A stretch of DNA of 61,482 nucleotides, the filler included. It is 9 parts of 9 records of this genome, joined end to end, with 100 filler letters (N's around TTAATTAATTAA, not from the genome) between each part and the next. Parts side by side here need not be neighbours in the genome. Positions count along the whole stretch, not along the records: positions 55,784 to 61,482 come from SRR31147125_38921; 8 more parts are not named here. One strand, written 5' to 3'. This document shows, in pieces, positions 52,903 through 61,482 of the stretch; within the stretch, counting starts at the first letter, position 1, and every line of letters starts with the position of its first letter. A model generated the notes under the pieces. It had not been told where the DNA came from. It worked only from the letters and a program-made list of their open reading frames with translations, and made no database searches. The translations under genes were made by a program, and so were the position numbers.

Positions 52903-54455
52903 TTATTCTTCGGCCCGGTCGGGCTTGAGTAATGGACCATAGTATGGATTCATCGACTCGATCAATCGTTCGAAGATCCCATACATCCTATCATGATGAT
53001 TCTTCTTGTCACAATTCGGCTCAAAATAACCAGAAGAGGTCGTTCCGGTATCGGGAACACTGAAACTGTCCAGGAGTCCCAGCCCGACGCCTCCGACAAT
53101 GGCAGCACCTCTGGCCGTCGCCATTTGAAGTGATCCAGGTCGGGTAACGGTACTGTCAGTGATATCTGCAATGGTCCGACACCAGGCATCACTCCTGGCA
53201 CCGCCTCCGATAATCATCAGTTCATCAGGAATCGCCATTTGACCGAAGAGAAGAGGGATCATTCGCCTGATGTTGTATGCAACGCCTTCCTGGACGGAAT
53301 GCATCATATCCCATGCTCCATGCTCCATTGACAGACCTATGAAGGCGCCCCGGGCCTTCGAGTTGAAATCAGGTGCTCCACCACCCCTGAGATAAGGCAG
53401 GAACATCAGGCCATGAGATGCTACATCTTCACGTGCTGACCATTCTTCGAAACCGGAATACAGATGACGGCGAATCTCATCATGATCAACTGATTCATCA
53501 GCATTGGACAGAAGGTCCACTATCCATTGGTAGCAGATGCCACCTCCGTAATTGACCAACTGGGTACAATAGAAATCTTCAACGACGTGGCAGAGTACAA
53601 AAGGCCTGTTCACAGGATCCGGTTTCCAGGAATCCGCAGGTATGGTATCGGAAACCCAGGATGCTGATCCCAGATTGATATAGGGAGTTCCTTCCCGTAC
53701 CGAACCGGCTCCAACAGAAGCACAGGGAACATCCCCTCCCCGGTCACCACGGGAATACCGGAAACAAGTCCACATGCCCTTGCTGCGTCATCAGTCAGTT
53801 TCCCGATGATCTCGCATGATCCGATCAATGGAGGAAGTTTCCCGTAGTCCAGTTCCAGGGTACTGCACAGATCTTCAGACCATTGTTTCTTCCGCAACTC
53901 CATAAGGCCGTAGTTCGATCCTTCCGAGTAGTCGGTCGCAAAGCAACCGGTCAACCGGTAATTGATATAGTCTTTGGTTCCGAGAAAGGCGTGAGTCCGC
54001 CGGTATATATCCTCCAGGTTGCGTTTCATCCAGAGGATCTTCGCCGCCGGATAAATCTGAAGATCCAGGCCTCCGCCAGTTATCTCGTAAAAAGATTCGA
54101 AACTTATCCGATTCCGGATGATTTCAGCCTCTTCGGTACTGCGAAAATCCGCCCACATGAATATTTCATCCATCAGAAGATTCCCGTCACGATCAAGCGG
54201 AATACATCCATTCATATGTCCGTCAACACAAATCCCCGCTACAGATTCAGGAAGAACTCCTGTCTCATCAAGGATGTTGCGCGTTGAACCGGAAACGGAC
54301 TCCCACCAGTCTATGGGTCTCTGCAATGCCGTCAGGGCACCATGATATAAAGTCCGATGCGTCCTGTATCGATCGGCTACCAGTCGCATTTCCTGGTCAA
54401 ACAGACAGCTCTTAACTCCAGTAGTACCGATGTCGTGAGACAGGATATAGTTCAC
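52903..54455 (-). CDS. FGGY carbohydrate kinase, xylulokinase-like (frameshift near 53740)
   Basis: HDIGTTGVK, WADFRS, KDYI, TDYS, GGD, NLGS, FLPYL, GGGARS, split over two overlapping ORFs. Confidence 0.88.
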
Positions 54456-55240
54456 GCCCAGGCCTTCCACGGGTTATGGGTTGCGAGCATTCCTCCATCC
54501 ACTGAAATAACCGATCCGTCGATATAACCGGAAGCCTGTGAAGCAAGGAACAGAACAACGGAAGTGATATCATCTGGATCCGCAAACCTCCTGAGCGGGA
54601 TTGTCCGCAGCTTCTCTTCAGCACGACTTTGAAGAATATCCTTGGTCATTTCCGTTATTACGACACCCGGGGCATAAGCATTTACTGAAATACCGTAAGG
54701 CGCGACTTCCGCAGCCATCACCCGGGTCAGGGTTTCAACTGCCGATTTTGCAATGCAGTAAGCACCCATGCCGACACTGGGCATGGCGGCAACATTCGAA
54801 CTCACATTGACAATCCTGCCGCCGCCGCGTTCCTTCATCGAAGGAAGGACAGCTTTGGAGCAAAGCAGGACTCCTGAGAGATTCACGTCGAGGACTTTGT
54901 TCCAGTCCTCGGTTTTCATTGTCTCCAGCGGGGAACGGATCAGCATACCGGCATTGTTTACCAGAACATCGATTCCCCCGAAACTTCCAATAATCCCGGA
55001 AACCGCTGATTCGACCGAATCGGGATCCGAGATATCACAAAGCCAACCAGCCACATCAGTGTCGGTGAAATCCGCAGACATTTCTACTACTGTCGAATCC
55101 AATGCTTCCTGGTTGATATCCAACAGGGCAACTCTGGCGCCAGACCGGCAGAATCCTTCGGCGATATTTCTGCCGATTCCCCTGGAGGCTCCTGTTACAA
55201 CGGCGCAACGTCCTTTCAGGTCTTTATATACAGCATCCAT
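54452..55240 (-). CDS. Short-chain dehydrogenase/reductase
   Basis: TGASRGIG, VNNAG, YCIAK (YxxxK), VDGG. Confidence 0.92.
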   Translation of the reverse strand: MDAVYKDLKGRCAVVTGASRGIGRNIAEGFCRSGARVALLDINQEALDSTVVEMSADFTDTDVAGWLCDISDPDSVESAVSGIIGSFGGIDVLVNNAGMLIRSPLETMKTEDWNKVLDVNLSGVLLCSKAVLPSMKERGGGRIVNVSSNVAAMPSVGMGAYCIAKSAVETLTRVMAAEVAPYGISVNAYAPGVVITEMTKDILQSRAEEKLRTIPLRRFADPDDITSVVLFLASQASGYIDGSVISVDGGMLATHNPWKAWA

Positions 55241-55783: not shown

Positions 55784-56698
55784 CCCTCGGCGCAGGGATG
55801 TGCCAGTGCCCAAGAGGAAACAGACGAGTTTGAAGAGTTCTCTGATGATGAATTTTCGGAGTTTGCAGAAGATGACAATAGCGAAGTTGAAAAATCAGAT
55901 TCAATATGGACCAACAGGAATTTTACACTTTCGCTTTTAGTTCTTTTTTTAACGCTTGTGGCCGGAATTCTGGTTCGTTTTAAAACCACCAGAAAACTGA
56001 AAACATTTATGTTGCTCGGAACAATGGTATACCTTGGTTTTATTAATGGTGCCTGCCCGTGTATGATTTCCAGTTTCCAGAATACCGTAATGTATGTAAT
56101 GGGAATTGATGTTGAACCGGTTCTTATGCTGTGGTTCCTGGGATTAATTCCGCTAACATATTTCTTCGGAAAAGTTTGGTGTGGCTGGGTTTGCCATTTA
56201 GGAGCCTTACAAGAATTTATTTTCCGCCCGGGAGTTATAAAGGTTTTGCAAAGCCGCAAATCGCAGGTAATTTTAAAATGGATTCGCATTGTAACTCTTA
56301 TCGTTCTTGTCATTCAAATTGTAACAACACGCACCAATATTTTTATTCATTACGATCCGTTTAAAGTTGCATATAACCTGTTTTCGGCAAATACAACCGG
56401 CTATGTACTTTTAGTTATTATGCTGGTTTCGTCAATTCTTATTTACCGGCCGTTTTGCCGTACACTTTGCCCGGTAGGTTTGATTCTGGGTTGGGTTTCG
56501 CATATTCCGGGGGCCGCGAAAATAAATAAAACAGAAAGTTGTATCGATTGTAAAAGCTGTAGCAATGCATGCAATTACAATGCAATGACTTACGAAAATA
56601 AAAAGAGTAAAATAGATAACGAAGACTGTATTTTATGTGGCGACTGTTTGGATAGTTGTAAACTTTCTTCGATAGAAATTAAAGGAATAGCCAAATGA
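55784..56698 (+). CDS. NapH/MauN/NosR-C-like membrane ferredoxin-type protein (5' truncated)
   Basis: Frame open from the contig edge. Acidic tract, several TM helices, GACPC, FGKVWCGWVCH, RPFCRTLCP and two CxxCxxCxxxC motifs. Confidence 0.85.
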   Translation, partial: PSAQGCASAQEETDEFEEFSDDEFSEFAEDDNSEVEKSDSIWTNRNFTLSLLVLFLTLVAGILVRFKTTRKLKTFMLLGTMVYLGFINGACPCMISSFQNTVMYVMGIDVEPVLMLWFLGLIPLTYFFGKVWCGWVCHLGALQEFIFRPGVIKVLQSRKSQVILKWIRIVTLIVLVIQIVTTRTNIFIHYDPFKVAYNLFSANTTGYVLLVIMLVSSILIYRPFCRTLCPVGLILGWVSHIPGAAKINKTESCIDCKSCSNACNYNAMTYENKKSKIDNEDCILCGDCLDSCKLSSIEIKGIAK

Positions 56699-58050
56699 AG
56701 AAAATTATATTTCTAGTATTTTTTGTCGGAACATTTTTAACAGGAGCTGCACAATGGGAATGCCCAAGTAAACTGGCAGCTCATCTCGATCCGGTATTTG
56801 ACAGCCCGCTTTTAATTGCAGGCGAAACTCAGTTTACTACCGGAATTCTGGACGGCAATTCGATTAGTACCGCCATGGCGTTTGTGGGATTGGATTACAG
56901 CACCCAAAATCACTCGTTTTATTTTGAAGGAGGAATAAAAAACTGGTGGAAATACGATTTTGATGAAGAGATTCTGTTCGACAATCACCGCCTGGGATTA
57001 CGCGAATTGTTTTATCAATACAACGGGAGTTTGAGCAGTGTTACTGTTGGGTTACAAACCTCAACTTTCGACGACCATTATTTATTAAATGAACGCGTGG
57101 CCGGTGCCAATTTTAAACTCGATTTGGGTAATTTAAAATTTAATGCATACGGAGGTAGTGTAACAAAAGATTTTGCGAGGAACGGAATTTTCTGTACCAC
57201 CGGATTTATTTACGACCTGCAAACCGCGCAAAATTCAATTTCTTTGGGTAACAGTTTAGGCGATAAAAACCTGGCCGGTTTCACATTTACCTTATTTCCG
57301 GGAAAAGCTAAAAAGACCAAAACAAAGCCATCAGAGTCGGACGAGGATGAATTTGAGGTTTTCGAAGAAGATGAGTTTGCGGAAGTGGATGACAATGAAT
57401 TTGAAGCAACGGATGAGTTTGAAAGCTCTGATGAAGAGTTTGCAGATTTTGAGATGAATTCGCAAGAAAAAAAATTGAAAAATACGCTAGTTTTCGGAAT
57501 CGAAAAAATTGGTATTGCAGCCTACTCCGAGTTTGGCGATTGGATTCAAAATGCCTTCTATCATACGGGGCTTTTTGCTTCGGTAAAATTACCCGGAGAT
57601 ATATATTTTAAACCGGAAGCTCTTTTGCAAATTGAAGAATTGAATAAAGGAATTATTTACCTGGCCGAGTTGGAAAGGTCGTTTAAGTTAAAAGGTGGCA
57701 ATCGGCTGTTTGTTTCAGCAGCTTATTACGGATTTTCTGAAATTGATGATGATGCCATGGTTTTGAACTCGTACAGTAATATTTTGGCGGGAGAAGTGCT
57801 TAGGCTCGATGCTGCAAACATGCCATTCTATTTGTTGGGTGCAAAGTTTAATATTCCATCGGCAAAATTTCATATAAAACTACAAAGTGCCGGGCAACTT
57901 AATTCGGGCGATTTAAACGAGTGGGACATTGAAATAGGGAAAAAGTTTATCGACCGCCTGCATGTGAATGCCAAGGCAGGAATAATTAGTGGTGGCGAAC
58001 TGGAAGAAAACGCTTTATTGGGGCGTTTGGAAGCAAGGTATTATTTTTAA
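56695..58050 (+). CDS. Hypothetical exported protein, predicted outer-membrane beta-barrel with acidic insert
   Basis: Sec signal (MKKII...GAA|Q), many amphipathic beta-strand patterns, C-terminal GRLEARYYF; ATG overlaps the upstream stop. Confidence 0.65.
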   Translation: MKKIIFLVFFVGTFLTGAAQWECPSKLAAHLDPVFDSPLLIAGETQFTTGILDGNSISTAMAFVGLDYSTQNHSFYFEGGIKNWWKYDFDEEILFDNHRLGLRELFYQYNGSLSSVTVGLQTSTFDDHYLLNERVAGANFKLDLGNLKFNAYGGSVTKDFARNGIFCTTGFIYDLQTAQNSISLGNSLGDKNLAGFTFTLFPGKAKKTKTKPSESDEDEFEVFEEDEFAEVDDNEFEATDEFESSDEEFADFEMNSQEKKLKNTLVFGIEKIGIAAYSEFGDWIQNAFYHTGLFASVKLPGDIYFKPEALLQIEELNKGIIYLAELERSFKLKGGNRLFVSAAYYGFSEIDDDAMVLNSYSNILAGEVLRLDAANMPFYLLGAKFNIPSAKFHIKLQSAGQLNSGDLNEWDIEIGKKFIDRLHVNAKAGIISGGELEENALLGRLEARYYF

Positions 58051-58062
58051 AGAGGGCGCATT

Positions 58063-59079
58063 ATGACGAAAGAGAAAAAGAATCAGGAAGAAAATACAAG
58101 ACGTAAATTTATTGGCGGCGGATTAACATTTGCAGCAGGAAGTTTATTATTATCTCCGCTTATTCATTCTTGTTCCGAGAGTTTTTATGATACACTAACC
58201 ATTGACGGAGCTCGTTGTATTGGCTGTGGCGATTGTGACGATGTTTGTAATTACAGCGCAATCGAAATGAATGGCGTTTCGGAATACTGGATAAATGTAG
58301 GAGATTGTTCTAAATGTAGTTGGTGTGTAGATGTTTGCGAAGATGATGCCATTAAAATGCCGGAGTTGAGTTACAATATTACTGCAAGTAAATGTACCGG
58401 TTGTAACGAGTGTCTTCCGTCGTGTGAATATGGTGCTTTAAAAATTGCGTCAAACGTATATTCTATAGAATCGGGATGCGTAGGTTGTGGCGACTGTATA
58501 ACAGCATGCGAAGATGAAGCAATCTCTTATGTTGTGAGTGAATATTCTGTAAGTGGCGGGAAATGCCATGCTTGTATCTCCCGATGTTCCGGGGCTTGTA
58601 AATACGATGCTATTTCATTAAAAAACGGGCATGCTTATATCGATACATCTAAATGTACAAAGTGTGGCGAGTGTTTAAGCGCCTGTCCGTATAGTGCTAT
58701 TAAAAAAGCTTATGTAGAAATCGATCAGGAAAAGTGTACCAACTGTGGCAAATGTTACGATGCATGTACTTACGACGAAATTGAAAAATCCGGCGATTCT
58801 GATATCGAAGAGTCATTCATCGAACGACTTTCGTGTACCAATTGTGGCGAGTGTATTGATGAGTGTCCGGAAGATGCTATTTATATGGTAAAATCGGGCG
58901 ATTTTGAGCCTGAAATAGTAATGGAAGACTGTACTGTTTGTGGTAAATGTTTCGAAGTCTGTTCTGTTCAGCAGGCTGTCGATCGAACTGTTGCCACGGC
59001 ATCAATCACTCAGGATAACTGTATGAAATGTGATAAGTGTTTTGATGTTTGTAATTACGACGCGGTACAGATGGGGTAA
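58063..59079 (+). CDS. Polyferredoxin (ten 4-Cys Fe-S motifs) with twin-arginine/lipoprotein-like signal
   Basis: NTRRKFI, hydrophobic stretch, IHSC; then nine CxxCxxCxxxC and one CxxCxxxCxxxC. Confidence 0.88.
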   Translation: MTKEKKNQEENTRRKFIGGGLTFAAGSLLLSPLIHSCSESFYDTLTIDGARCIGCGDCDDVCNYSAIEMNGVSEYWINVGDCSKCSWCVDVCEDDAIKMPELSYNITASKCTGCNECLPSCEYGALKIASNVYSIESGCVGCGDCITACEDEAISYVVSEYSVSGGKCHACISRCSGACKYDAISLKNGHAYIDTSKCTKCGECLSACPYSAIKKAYVEIDQEKCTNCGKCYDACTYDEIEKSGDSDIEESFIERLSCTNCGECIDECPEDAIYMVKSGDFEPEIVMEDCTVCGKCFEVCSVQQAVDRTVATASITQDNCMKCDKCFDVCNYDAVQMG

Positions 59080-59102
59080 AAACGTTAGTATTTATAACAC
59101 AG

Positions 59103-59150
59103 AGAACCGTTCTTTCTTACATATATTGAAGAGAGAACGGTTCTTTTTTT
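59103..59150 (+). terminator. Intrinsic terminator between the polyferredoxin operon and hydrogenase operon
   Basis: AGAACCGTTCT...AGAACGGTTCT followed by a T-run. Confidence 0.8.
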
Positions 59151-59158
59151 CGTCAGTT

Positions 59159-59665
59159 TTATGCTGATTTTATATCATCAGCCTCAGCATTTCTATATTC
59201 TGCAATAATGTTTTTTACTTCTGAAGGAGAAACACGTCCGAAAACTTTTTCGCCCACAGTAACCACCGGAGCAAGGCCGCAAGCTCCCACACAACGCAGG
59301 CAGTTTATCGAAAATTTTCCATCTTCGGTAGATTCTCCAACATCAACACCCAATTGGCGTTTAAATTCGCTAAGAACCTGTTCTGCACCACGAACATAGC
59401 ATGCAGTTCCCATACAAATTGAAATAGGATGTTCGCCTTGTGGAATCATAGTAAAGAAGCTGTAGAATGTTACGACTCCGTAAACTTTTGCTACCGAAGA
59501 ATTTAATTCTTTTGCAATTACTTCCTGCACCTCGGCCGGTAAATAACCTAGTTTTCCCTGAACTTTATGAAGTACATTTATTAATTCACTCTCTTTATTT
59601 TCAAACTCAGCACAAATGTCTTTTATGAGCTGAATTACATTTTCTGCTAATTTTATTTTTGGCAT
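59159..59665 (-). CDS. [2Fe-2S] NuoE-like hydrogenase subunit (HydC/HndA type)
   Basis: VYGVVTFYSFF, CMGTACYVRG, CVGACGLAP. Confidence 0.92.
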   Translation of the reverse strand: MPKIKLAENVIQLIKDICAEFENKESELINVLHKVQGKLGYLPAEVQEVIAKELNSSVAKVYGVVTFYSFFTMIPQGEHPISICMGTACYVRGAEQVLSEFKRQLGVDVGESTEDGKFSINCLRCVGACGLAPVVTVGEKVFGRVSPSEVKNIIAEYRNAEADDIKSA

Positions 59666-59717
59666 TTTCAGTACTTTTTAAATTTAAGCATTAAATAATT
59701 CTCGCATTCCTGCACAA

Positions 59718-61469
59718 TTAAGTTCTGTCAAAGTACTCGGTATGCAATAAATGATGCGCTTTTTCACTCATAGGTTCTCCAAGGAATTTTTCGTATAATT
59801 CAATGATGTAAGGATTTTCGTGCGACTTACGAATCGTTTTATTTTTATCTTCCCGGTAAATAGCCATTTGTCGTTTTTTCAAAACTTCAGCATCTCCATG
59901 GTGATAAGGCTGGCCTCCACCGCCAATGCATCCTCCCGGACAACTCATTATTTCAATGGCGTGGAACTCGCTCTTTCCTGCCCGAATATCTTCCAACAAT
60001 TTACGCGCATTTCCTAAACCGTGGGCAATTCCTATTCGAATAGGCAAACCATCGAAATCAATGGTAGCTTCACGAATTCCTTCCATACCGCGTAATTCTT
60101 CGAAATCTACTTTCGGAAGTTCTTTTTTAGTATGCACCTCATAGGCTGTACGAACTGCTGCTTCTATAACACCTCCGGTAGTTCCGAAAATAACAGCAGC
60201 ACCGGTCGATTCTCCAAGTGGATTGTCGAACTCTTCGTTTGGCAGGGCATTAAAATCAATATTCGATAGTTTTATTAATGATGCCAATTCGCGGGTAGTA
60301 AGTGCATAATCAACATCTGGATTACCGTTTGTTTTAAACTCATCGCGGCCACATTCGTATTTTTTTGCTACGCACGGCATAATAGAAACCACAACCAAAT
60401 CTTCACGTTTAACTTCCATTTGCTCGGCAAAATATGTTTTGGCAATGGCTCCAAACATTTGTTGTGGCGAACGTGCTGTTGAAGGAATTTCCTTCATGTC
60501 GGGGAATTGGTGTTCAAAGAATTTCACCCAGGCCGGACAGCATGAAGTTAGAATAGGAAGTTTAACATCCTTGTCGCCGGCCAAATGTTTTCCTAATCGG
60601 TTAAGTAACTCTGTCCCTTCCTCCATAATAGTGAGGTCGGCAGCAAAATCGGTGTCGAAAACATGGTGGAAACCAAGTCGACGCAAAGCTGCAACTAGTT
60701 TGCCTGTTACCAATGTTCCGGCTTCCATTCCAAATTCTTCGCCCAAAGCAGCACGTACTGCCGGAGCAGTTTGAACGATAACTGTTTTTGAAGGATCTGA
60801 AAGTGCACGGATTACTTTACCTGTTTCGTCAACTTCGGTTAATGCTCCTGTTGGGCACACTGCCACACATTGTCCACAGTATGTACAAACAGAATGGTCG
60901 AGGTTCATTTCAAAAGCCGGTGAAACAACCGAATCGAAACCACGGTTAATAGCAGAAAGTACACCAACGGTTTGAACCTCGTTACACATCATTTCGCAAC
61001 GGCGACACATAATACATTTGTCTACATCGCGGGTAATTGCAGGTGATGTATCGGCACGATATGTTGATTGTTCTCCTTTATAATGAATTTCGCGGATTCC
61101 AAGATTGTGAGCCAGATCCTGCAAGTCGCAATTGCCCGATTTTGCACAGATTAAGCAGTCAAACGGATGGTCGGAAAGAATTAATTCCATTACCGTTCTT
61201 CTGGCATTAATAACACGCATTGAGTGTGTATTAATCTCCATCCCTTCGCCAACATCGGTACAACAAGCCGGAGCCAGATTGCGTCTTCCGTTTACTTCAA
61301 CCACACAAATTCGACATCCTCCGGGTTTATTCTCAATGTTTAAATCGTCCAGTTTCATGTGGCAAAGGGTCGGGATATCAATTCCAATTCCCGATGCCGC
61401 TTCTAAAATTGTGGTTCCTTTTTTTACCACAACCGGTTTATTATCAATGGTAAGATTTACTGTATCCAT
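59718..61469 (-). CDS. hydA: [FeFe]-hydrogenase group A catalytic subunit (HydA/HndD type)
   Basis: N-terminal [2Fe-2S], HxxxCxxCxxxxxC, 2x[4Fe-4S]; H-cluster motifs TSCCPAW, MPCVAKKYE, EIMSCPGGCIGGGGQP. Confidence 0.95.
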   Translation of the reverse strand: MDTVNLTIDNKPVVVKKGTTILEAASGIGIDIPTLCHMKLDDLNIENKPGGCRICVVEVNGRRNLAPACCTDVGEGMEINTHSMRVINARRTVMELILSDHPFDCLICAKSGNCDLQDLAHNLGIREIHYKGEQSTYRADTSPAITRDVDKCIMCRRCEMMCNEVQTVGVLSAINRGFDSVVSPAFEMNLDHSVCTYCGQCVAVCPTGALTEVDETGKVIRALSDPSKTVIVQTAPAVRAALGEEFGMEAGTLVTGKLVAALRRLGFHHVFDTDFAADLTIMEEGTELLNRLGKHLAGDKDVKLPILTSCCPAWVKFFEHQFPDMKEIPSTARSPQQMFGAIAKTYFAEQMEVKREDLVVVSIMPCVAKKYECGRDEFKTNGNPDVDYALTTRELASLIKLSNIDFNALPNEEFDNPLGESTGAAVIFGTTGGVIEAAVRTAYEVHTKKELPKVDFEELRGMEGIREATIDFDGLPIRIGIAHGLGNARKLLEDIRAGKSEFHAIEIMSCPGGCIGGGGQPYHHGDAEVLKKRQMAIYREDKNKTIRKSHENPYIIELYEKFLGEPMSEKAHHLLHTEYFDRT

Positions 61470-61482
61470 AATTTTCAAGTTT

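Follow-up and report, generated by a model that had tools for sequence, protein, structure and literature searches.

A conserved six-gene envelope cluster of Bacteroidota that combines a polyferredoxin lipoprotein, a predicted outer-membrane channel and a permease: a tentative link to periplasmic metal reduction and transport

Electrons are known to pass beyond the inner membrane of Gram-negative bacteria on hemes, or on flavins attached by ApbE. Here we describe a gene cluster with neither of these, met as three genes near the 3' end of a stretch of 61,482 nucleotides (nt; hereafter the window) in which nine contigs are joined end to end. The genes, which we call N, B and F, encode a NosR/NapH-like membrane iron-sulfur (Fe-S) protein, a predicted outer-membrane beta-barrel and a polyferredoxin with an export signal. 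A first-pass annotation made from the letters of the sequence had read them as a heme-free wire threaded through a barrel in the manner of MtrAB. Judged by sequence and gene order, the trio is the distal half of a conserved six-gene module that also encodes an ArsP-family permease (P) and two small Cys-bearing proteins (a and b). The cluster more likely reduces and moves a metal such as iron than acts as a wire in the outer membrane, and we tentatively regard it, with somewhat less than even confidence, as a periplasmic reductive module coupled to the transport of a metal, probably iron.

NapGH offers one of the closest likenesses to N and F. In both cases a Fer4_5 membrane protein with a CX3CP motif and a cytoplasmic 2x[4Fe-4S] domain is paired with a multi-cluster ferredoxin exported by twin-arginine translocation (Tat). 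NapH has four helices, whereas N scores under the NapH cut-off and has a five-helix core with an N-terminal extension bearing an acidic periplasmic loop; NapG carries four clusters, whereas F is a lipoprotein with 2-14 of them. NapA and NapB are lacking here (no molybdopterin enzyme, and thus no nap context with its NapA catalytic subunit, was found in the flanks of 18 loci from relatives), and the cluster has in addition an outer-membrane barrel, a permease and two carrier-like proteins. N is also like NosR in its predicted layout: its N-terminal part is periplasmic, its core lies in the membrane and its Fe-S domain is cytoplasmic. In a survey that covered flavinylation-associated clusters only (PMC8238504), NapH-like proteins (PF12801) form one of five modular classes of transmembrane electron-transfer unit, and N is a unit of this modular kind. 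Unlike in NosR and the flavinylated systems, no FMN-binding domain was found in N, its partner is an Fe-S lipoprotein and not a flavinylated protein, and NosZ is missing from the flanks.

Porin-cytochrome systems such as MtrAB and PioAB share with this locus a barrel gene beside a ten-cofactor exported carrier and an inner-membrane donor. MtrB is a sheath of 26-strand size with a periplasmic opening of ~30 Å that admits MtrA, which measures 80 x 30 x 35 Å (PMC7198977). In contrast, B has 18 strands, the cofactors are Fe-S clusters and not hemes (no CxxCH motif) and vary in number, no surface cytochrome is present, and transport genes lie within the unit. In predicted fold and size B is like AlgE, the OprD (Occ) channels and the porin MOMP; unlike them, it matches no sequence family, carries Cys23, Cys167 and an insert of EF repeats, and stands in a redox and not a polysaccharide context.

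CcoG belongs to the NapH/FixG family, and FtrD of the FtrABCD system is a NapH-like polyferredoxin. Like the present cluster, these systems combine a membrane Fe-S protein with small periplasmic metal-binding proteins and a permease, and change the redox state of a metal during its trafficking. Here, however, an ArsP_1 permease takes the place of Ftr1 or of a P-type ATPase, the cluster further includes a periplasmic polyferredoxin lipoprotein and a dedicated outer-membrane barrel, and no homology of a or b to P19 or to cupredoxins was detected. There is also a likeness to FecIRA signalling: four loci have, immediately 5' of the cluster, genes for FecR, a TonB-dependent receptor and a FecI-like sigma factor, with the same motif before the sigma gene and before the cluster. 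This arrangement is confined to some lineages and is not seen beside the window's relatives. The cluster joins a NapH-type electron exporter and an Fe-S lipoprotein to an outer-membrane channel of its own and a set of transport genes, and this combination appears to be undescribed. The first-pass annotation knew of no described system of this composition, and the literature that we searched for a porin-polyferredoxin or similar system yielded none; Supplementary file 1 of PMC8238504, on NapH-like clusters, may include relatives.

Gene content and conservation of the cluster

The contigs of the window are separated by N44-TTAATTAATTAA-N44 spacers located within 5631-55783, and genes on either side of a spacer are not linked because the window is a chain of separate contigs. 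The trio begins at base 1 of the last contig (55784-61482), at whose junction G+C drops from ~50% to ~39%. Since gene N starts at that first base, the missing 5' end of the operon, already remarked in the first-pass annotation, is a contig break; by tblastn, the missing part of N is absent from the other contigs of the window. N and B overlap by 4 nt (ATGA) and B is followed after 12 nt by F. A hairpin at 59101-59146 and a U run close the group (-27.5 kcal/mol, z = -8.0, none of 200 shuffles folding as well), and were passed over by a simple terminator scan because the loop is long. These results confirm the description of three tightly coupled genes ended by one terminator. The trio is also heme-free, as had been proposed: CxxCH is found in none of the three window proteins, and in 2/252 core open reading frames (ORFs) of relatives.

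Orthologs of the window genes exist at 62-73% identity, and in one search the barrel was represented by 105 database clusters. The contig and the Draconibacterium loci L001-L006 are collinear, at ~70-74% nucleotide identity over the three genes and ~80% over the hydrogenase genes beyond them. The possibility that the genes are chance ORFs was rejected on the strength of orthologs at up to ~70% identity and of this collinearity.

To describe the cluster outside the window we used a barrel-profile scan with one genome per species; 126 stretches were matched, of which 61 encode a relative, giving 58 distinct loci whose ORFs were called crudely and matched by phmmer. Nearly all belong to Bacteroidota (Prolixibacteraceae, Saccharicrinis, Bacteroidaceae, Prevotella, Parabacteroides, Muribaculaceae, Paludibacter, Lentimicrobiaceae) and two are Kapabacteria-like, so that the cluster is conserved over Marinilabiliales, Bacteroidales and Kapabacteria-like genomes, gut and sediment relatives included. 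Where at least 2 kb lies 5' of the barrel, N and b were each found in 48/51 loci; where at least 1.3 kb lies 3' of it, F was likewise found in 48/51. The 39 loci with at least 4 kb on both sides contain N and F in 34 cases, b in 36, a in 30 and P in 30, with all six genes present in 28; the 11 incomplete loci are given in Table 1. Thus the co-conservation of the trio, put forward as a check by the first-pass annotation, was borne out. The operon-like trio is real, but it is part of a unit of six genes: the first-pass annotation had missed the permease and the pair of small periplasmic proteins with Cys.

The gene order is a-P-b-N-B-F in Draconibacterium, the closest relatives of the window, and b-N-B-F-a-P elsewhere. 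Because of the order in these relatives and the contig break, the genes a, P and b and the initial ~160 codons of N are most likely missing from the window. In two Prolixibacteraceae loci a gene for a 410-residue, Ser/Thr/Gly-rich, lipoprotein-like protein of no family lies between the barrel and the polyferredoxin (L007:11694-12926 and L008:11526-12758).

Proteins of the cluster and their predicted places in the envelope

N matches Pfam Fer4_5 (PF12801) with 57.7 bits against a cut-off of 22, and has one CX3CH motif, one CX3CP motif and two C-terminal CxxCxxCxxxC motifs at residues 253 and 282 of the partial protein. The first-pass annotation is therefore upheld in calling it an inner-membrane protein of NapH type with CxxxC(P/H) and 2x[4Fe-4S] motifs, with the limit that no curated cut-off is reached: N scores 56.3 bits with the NapH equivalog (cut-off 234), 71.7 bits with the NapH/MauN family TIGR02163 (cut-off 213.05; a full-length ortholog scores 70.2 bits) and 64.6 bits with NosR NF046105 (cut-off 1000). 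A comparison with PDB sequences returned generic ferredoxin domains only. Full-length orthologs have 430-510 amino acids (aa), and the window N is 76% identical to residues 166-459 of the one in L001, which has no FMN_bind match. Hydropathy and K/R counts of four orthologs predict a signal peptide, a short Cys-bearing periplasmic segment, two helices and a long acidic loop, followed by five core helices, with GxCPC in the second, and then the CX3C motifs and the ferredoxin domain on the inside. This is a NosR-like layout in which a loop of EF repeats stands where the FMN-binding domain would be. The loop has ~4 K/R against 20-29 D/E, the short loops flanking it are K/R-rich, and the dipeptide EF occurs in it 2-10 times in 35/35 measurable orthologs.

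In 9/58 loci N and B are a single ORF of 866-927 aa (N::B) which keeps the signal peptide of the barrel internally; such fusions, of 856-904 aa, also occur in the protein library. At the junction a K/R-rich stretch is followed by the signal peptide and then by AQWECPS. Since the signal peptide of the fused barrel follows the C-terminal Fe-S domain of N, this domain should be cytoplasmic, and hydropathy and K/R counts agree. The fusion ties N and B to each other stoichiometrically, and its internal signal peptide implies cleavage of a polyprotein at the membrane.

F has nine CxxCxxCxxxC motifs and one CxxCxxxCxxxC motif. Its twin-arginine pair (RR), its lipobox Cys and all 40 cluster Cys are invariant in 15/15 aligned orthologs, and a cytoplasmic polyferredoxin was rejected because RR and lipobox are invariant. 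By sequence F has the marks of a Tat-exported lipoprotein (TRRKF, a hydrophobic stretch and IHSC, from which export and lipidation are predicted), as the first-pass annotation had said of its ten-motif polyferredoxin, and TatC is encoded in 5/5 genomes of relatives tested, three of them with forms of F that lack RR. All 60 F-type ORFs beside the barrel have a signal peptide ending in a lipobox-like Cys. RR is present in 35/60, mostly with 10-14 motifs; the 25/60 that lack it have 2-6 motifs and belong to Bacteroidaceae, Prevotella, Paludibacter and other groups. A locus encodes between 2 and 14 Fe-S motifs in total, and several loci have F split into two or three genes, giving up to three lipoproteins. 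In the surface-export (LES) rule for Bacteroidota, as given in PMC5080379, at least two acidic residues stand at about +3 to +6 after the lipid Cys. An acidic pair was scored in 18/60 F-type ORFs, three of the 18 being mis-parsed (the lipobox rule mis-parsed three F-type ORFs, those of L010, L011 and L013). In the window F, the lipid Cys is followed by SESFY, with no acidic pair and hence no LES signal.

For B, no Pfam or NCBIfam match was obtained and a profile search against the PDB gave nothing useful. An AlphaFold2 model built with 20 relatives has 18 long strands, with a mean predicted local distance difference test score (pLDDT) of 74.8 and a predicted template-modelling score (pTM) of 0.72. 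Its best Foldseek matches in the PDB are 18-strand channels, namely AlgE (3rbh), OccD/OccK and MOMP (E ~3e-9, TM 0.5-0.6); together with the signal peptide and the C-terminal aromatic residue, the 18-strand fold gives B the features of the AlgE/OprD class, a likeness of fold only. The exported protein with beta-barrel features of the first-pass annotation is thus supported by the model. Short turns (3-5 residues) alternate with mostly longer loops (2-36 residues) between the strands. One connection departs from this pattern: strands 8 and 9 are joined by an acidic insert of 67 residues which is disordered in the model (pLDDT ~22; below 50 at residues 208-265) and which strand parity would place on the periplasmic side. 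EF occurs in it 1-5 times in 37/37 measurable separate barrel ORFs; when fused forms are included, L036 has none. The EF-repeat motif is thus common to N and B, proteins of two different membranes, and is predicted to face the periplasm in both. The length of the insert follows the number of Fe-S motifs in 42 loci (Spearman 0.51), a correlation to which we give no weight because the loci are related.

The mature N-terminus of B, QWECPS, is conserved, and its conserved A|Q cleavage site presumably fits the 'Q-rule' of Bacteroidota. Cys23 and Cys167, the latter in the long loop between strands 7 and 8, are invariant. With just 176 representatives at E<=1e-3 in a set of 1.84 billion proteins, the family is a small one, and it was met only in this gene context in the loci examined; one relative is named 'alginate export protein' in its database record.

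The permease P, which is not on the last contig of the window, belongs to Pfam ArsP_1 (PF03773; 89.6-109 bits against a cut-off of 32.3 in five loci) and bears a CSC motif. Among NCBIfam models, a Cu/Zn efflux transporter and SaoE come nearest to it (54-72 bits against 300), and PDB sequences gave no match. Proteins a and b are secreted, of ~125 aa, and matched no family; hhalign relates them to one another as paralogs (probability 99.6%, E 7.6e-24), and both are basic (median isoelectric points 9.5 and 8.8). In b, Cys23 at the end of a lipobox-like signal, His53, Cys56 and Cys110 are invariant, and in a the one invariant Cys is Cys59. The profile of b gave nothing useful against PDB sequences.

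Neighbouring genes, the proposed mechanism and its alternatives

We scanned 76 flanking proteins from 18 loci with Pfam (E<=1e-5). No molybdopterin enzyme, NosZ, dehalogenase or cytochrome family was found, nor was ApbE seen in the set scanned. The first-pass annotation, to which no catalytic subunit was visible, had named as a refuting outcome a terminal reductase or dehalogenase encoded upstream and merely served by the trio; this reading was rejected, none being present in these flanks. The flanks vary from one lineage to another, yet certain neighbours recur, and in some lineages these point to iron. A FecI-like sigma factor of the extracytoplasmic function (ECF) kind and FecR occur in four loci (L021, L043, L046, L047), a TonB-dependent receptor in the same four and in L018, and the ferritin-like DUF2202 in L018, L021, L027 and L055. 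A DUF2271 protein with a type IX secretion tail is encoded within 4.5 kb in seven loci and in 8/58 in all, and 7/8 of these proteins have the [ST]GA[ST] motif of ApbE-type flavinylation; from their sequences they would be cell-surface flavoproteins. Rubrerythrin was found in four loci, SufS in four, SufE in two and DUF4405 in two. Altogether, 21/58 loci have at least one of these neighbours (sigma/FecR, receptor, DUF2202, DUF2271, rubrerythrin, SufS, SufE, DUF4405) within 4.5 kb. DUF2271 is flavinylated and its clusters are linked to iron reduction and assimilation (PMC8238504), and DUF2202 and DUF4405 are among ferrosome-cluster proteins (bioRxiv 10.1101/2020.01.10.902569).

A two-box motif, GGTAGGGT-N14-(T)CGGTA, was found 5' of sigma, b and DUF2202 genes, mostly ~15-40 nt before the start and in a few cases further away; its sites precede the FecI-like sigma gene, the first gene of the cluster and the DUF2202 genes. 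A loose form of the pattern matched 10/54 upstream regions of the cluster, against 0.0044 expected per 300 nt, and had 29 matches over all 1.96 Mb of loci. In a genome-wide scan of five genomes, the pattern had two matches in one small genome, both at this locus. We read the motif as a putative ECF-type promoter of a local regulon, a reading that depends on the position of the sites; position is all that we weigh because in two large genomes its frequency is about that of a reversed control.

From what the loci display directly, that is, gene content, co-conservation, fusions, export signals, predicted barrel size and the regulatory motif, we infer a direction of electron flow, a set of protein contacts and a substrate as follows. 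N, a polytopic protein of NosR/NapH type, would hold both ferredoxin-type clusters and its CX3C(H/P) motifs on the cytoplasmic side and, by analogy with NapH-like systems, would pass electrons outward to F, the predicted Tat-exported, lipid-anchored periplasmic polyferredoxin. B would be a dedicated 18-strand channel and not a sheath for F, letting a small oxidised substrate in or a product out. The disordered (D/E)EF repeats of N and B probably recruit one common periplasmic partner, for which the small basic proteins a and b, with their conserved Cys and His, are the best candidates. These Cys-bearing proteins, perhaps held on the EF repeats, may pass the reduced species to the permease P. 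The presence of a permease and of two small Cys-bearing proteins points to transport and not to electron export only. The likeliest substrate would be a redox-active, thiol-binding metal, with iron as a first guess (Fe(III) reduced to Fe(II) for assimilation) because of the neighbours and regulators in some lineages; a copper-like or arsenic-like thiophilic species, or sulfur, may take its place. If true, reductive metal uptake of this kind would account for the extracytoplasmic reduction of Fe(III) or other metals by anaerobes poor in heme. Three features offer experimental handles, namely the N::B fusions, the EF repeats common to N and B, and the ferredoxin lipoproteins that have no RR.

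Several points weigh against this proposal. Its whole mechanism is drawn from sequences and models; the periplasmic side of the acidic insert in the modelled barrel is an assignment by strand parity only; and to our knowledge the route of electrons across the membrane in NapH-type proteins has not been established. Judging from its signal peptides, the RR-less F (25/60), occurring despite TatC, is hard to square with an electron carrier exported with its Fe-S clusters preloaded. The iron-related neighbours are found in a minority of loci (21/58), none lies beside the cluster in the Draconibacterium group of the window, where the flanks hold HipA, an aldo-keto reductase, a hydrolase, a histidine kinase and the hydrogenase genes, and the annotated genes of the cluster showed no canonical iron transporter such as Feo, Ftr1 or VIT. 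The two-box pattern was no commoner than the reversed control in two large genomes (9 versus 13 and 5 versus 6), and its extra sites led to no iron genes, the genes behind them being one sigma factor, a VTC-domain protein, a Cthe_2159 protein and several without a family. Finally, the models nearest to P, the Cu/Zn efflux transporter and SaoE, are both far above its scores in their cut-offs, the ArsP permease family is known for organoarsenical export, and so many Cys ligands are as fitting for Cu(I), As(III) or persulfide sulfur as they are for iron.

These last points lead to the alternative that fares best, the detoxification or efflux of a thiophilic metal or metalloid (Cu, Ag, Hg, As, Sb, Se or Te), in which the periplasmic ferredoxin would alter the oxidation state of the ion, a and b would serve as its carriers, and P and the outer-membrane channel would export it. 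Beside the family of P and its nearest named models, conserved Cys are found all along such a route: in b (Cys, His, Cys, Cys), in a (one Cys), in the barrel (Cys23 and Cys167), in the GxCPC of N helix 2, in the periplasmic Cys motif of N and in the CSC of P. A precedent for the chemistry is CcoG, a Cu(II) reductase that acts via two [4Fe-4S] clusters according to a review (PMC7558416). However, no ArsR, MerR or CopY-type regulator and no P-type ATPase was found among the 76 flanking proteins, the linked regulators are of the FecI/FecR/TonB-receptor kind that usually serves uptake, P scores 54-72 bits against the 300 of the NCBIfam models, and up to 14 low-potential clusters have no evident use in efflux. 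We consider detoxification unlikely.

A bolder picture, which we hold to be very unlikely, is that of a heme-free Fe-S trans-envelope pathway of anaerobic Bacteroidota; a second bold one has the RR-less lipoproteins gain their clusters in the periplasm. In the first, electrons would go from a cytoplasmic reductant to N and on to a periplasm-spanning F held at both membranes by the EF repeats, and then through the Cys-lined 18-strand barrel to extracellular Fe(III) or to type IX-secreted DUF2271 flavoproteins. If true, the gain of clusters in the periplasm would be the first extracytoplasmic route of Fe-S assembly.

The proposal of the first-pass annotation, a heme-free conduit across the outer membrane, takes the polyferredoxin to sit in or at the barrel and to carry electrons from the inner membrane to extracellular acceptors or surface redox proteins, as an Fe-S analogue of MtrAB/PioAB. 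N, B and F are indeed the most tightly linked genes of the cluster, N and B are fused in nine loci and carry the same acidic EF repeats, and a chain of ten clusters could span a long distance. The DUF2271 proteins with type IX tails (8/58 loci, 7/8 with the flavinylation motif) would be surface flavoproteins in need of electrons, and the acidic pair of 18/60 F-type lipoproteins, mis-parsed cases among them, is that of the surface-export signal. Against a wire in the pore, a folded 2x[4Fe-4S] domain would be of a width similar to that of MtrA, which MtrB admits with its 26 strands, as against 18 here. A locus has 2-14 clusters, with F in up to three lipoproteins, which does not fit a wire of fixed length; F of the window has no acidic pair; most loci have no surface acceptor protein beside the cluster; and the permease and the two carrier-like proteins are left without a role. 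A pore-threaded wire is unlikely because the barrel is of the small-channel kind, the number of clusters is not fixed, and the unit includes the permease and two carrier-like proteins. Thus the notion of an envelope-spanning, heme-free redox unit was right in outline, whereas the MtrAB-like wire through the barrel was not upheld, and the conduit as a whole appears highly improbable to us.

Periplasmic handling of sulfur or Fe-S clusters has an equally small chance. It could take the form of a persulfide relay that reduces polysulfide or S0 in sulfur assimilation, or of a supply of iron and sulfide to exported apo-ferredoxin lipoproteins, which would then acquire their clusters outside the cytoplasm. 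The 25/60 F-type lipoproteins with Sec-type signals in genomes that encode TatC are consistent with it: any clusters in them would be inserted after export because the signals are Sec-type and lack RR. Proteins a and b are a small paralog pair, one of them with a conserved Cys near its C-terminus, which may be like the SoxY/SoxZ carrier pair, and SufS lies beside the cluster in four loci and SufE in two. However, the Suf neighbours are confined to one lineage (L007, L008, L012) and L025, family scans of the cluster and flanking proteins found no rhodanese, Sud, Psr or Sox family, and we know of no precedent for periplasmic Fe-S assembly.

Lastly, the supply of electrons by N and F, as NapH and NapG, to an unlinked periplasmic reductase, with the other genes as unrelated neighbours, would fit their NapH- and NapG-like domain content and the modular use of NapH-like proteins with many oxidoreductases described in PMC8238504, but it is most improbable in view of the co-conservation of the barrel, b, a and P with N and F across divergent lineages and in two gene orders, the fusion of N to the barrel in nine loci, the small size of a barrel family met only in this context in the loci examined, and the lack of a linked reductase in the 18 annotated loci.

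Table 1. Positions of the genes and sequence features of the cluster in the window and in the loci of relatives (L numbers)
Feature	Position	Strand	Basis or remark
Gene N, 3' part (304 codons), NosR/NapH-like membrane Fe-S protein	55784..56698	+	translation; 5' end open
N, acidic (D/E)EF-repeat segment, predicted periplasmic loop before the five-helix core	55811..55897	+	sequence, ortholog topology
Gene B, 451 aa, predicted outer-membrane 18-strand beta-barrel with signal peptide and C-terminal Phe	56695..58050	+	AlphaFold2 model, Foldseek
B, acidic (D/E)EF-repeat insertion, strands 8-9	57295..57495	+	disorder in model; periplasmic by strand parity only
Gene F, 338-aa polyferredoxin with ten [4Fe-4S]-type Cys motifs	58063..59079	+	motif scan, ortholog alignment
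F, twin-arginine (TRRKF) signal peptide and lipobox-like IHSC	58063..58173	+	predicted mature start Cys37
Intrinsic-terminator-like hairpin and U run, between convergent genes	59101..59153	+	folding versus shuffles
N::B fusions	L031:8585-11284, L039:8630-11293, L040:8594-11275, six more loci		one ORF, internal signal peptide
Incomplete loci (of 11)	L020, L021, L024, L027, L044, L051		b-N-B-F only
Incomplete loci (of 11)	L030, L038		N-B only
Incomplete loci (of 11)	L048		b-N-B
Incomplete loci (of 11)	L049, L053		no N detected
F-type lipoproteins without RR	L023:11247-11531, L040:11287-11625, L034:3317-4203, 22 other ORFs		2-6 [4Fe-4S] motifs
DUF2271 with type IX C-terminal domain	L020:12337-13152, L057:13170-13982, L040:7172-7921 (-), L014:4631-7867, four more
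Two-box motif sites	L043:4549, 8200; L047:237, 3956; L046:3027, 6796; L021:7343, 14853; L018:5817; L055:265

On the last contig of the window, the trio is followed on the opposite strand (59159-61478) by convergent genes for a NuoE/HoxE-like 2Fe-2S protein and for a hydrogenase large subunit, which scores 913 bits (cut-off 765) as a group A6, NADH-dependent [FeFe]-hydrogenase. These two genes also lie 3' of the cluster in the Draconibacterium loci L002 and L004-L006, and other lineages are without them. On the minus strand of the preceding contig, two ORFs (290 and 286 aa) that overlap in different frames (52903-54470) may be one gene split by a frameshift.

A trio of VTC-domain, DUF4956 and DUF2490 genes stands directly 5' of the cluster in L019 (5616-7984), and in the genome of L007 the two-box motif also precedes a VTC-domain gene (entry L075:1651-2397). 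In Mangrovibacterium, genes that Pfam identifies as NqrC-, NqrD-, NqrE- and NqrF-like are located just 5' of the cluster and on its strand (L045:4791-8075); in Sunxiuqinia, ORFs of 216, 205 and 423 aa in the same place (L042:788-3372) were matched to Nqr genes by size only.

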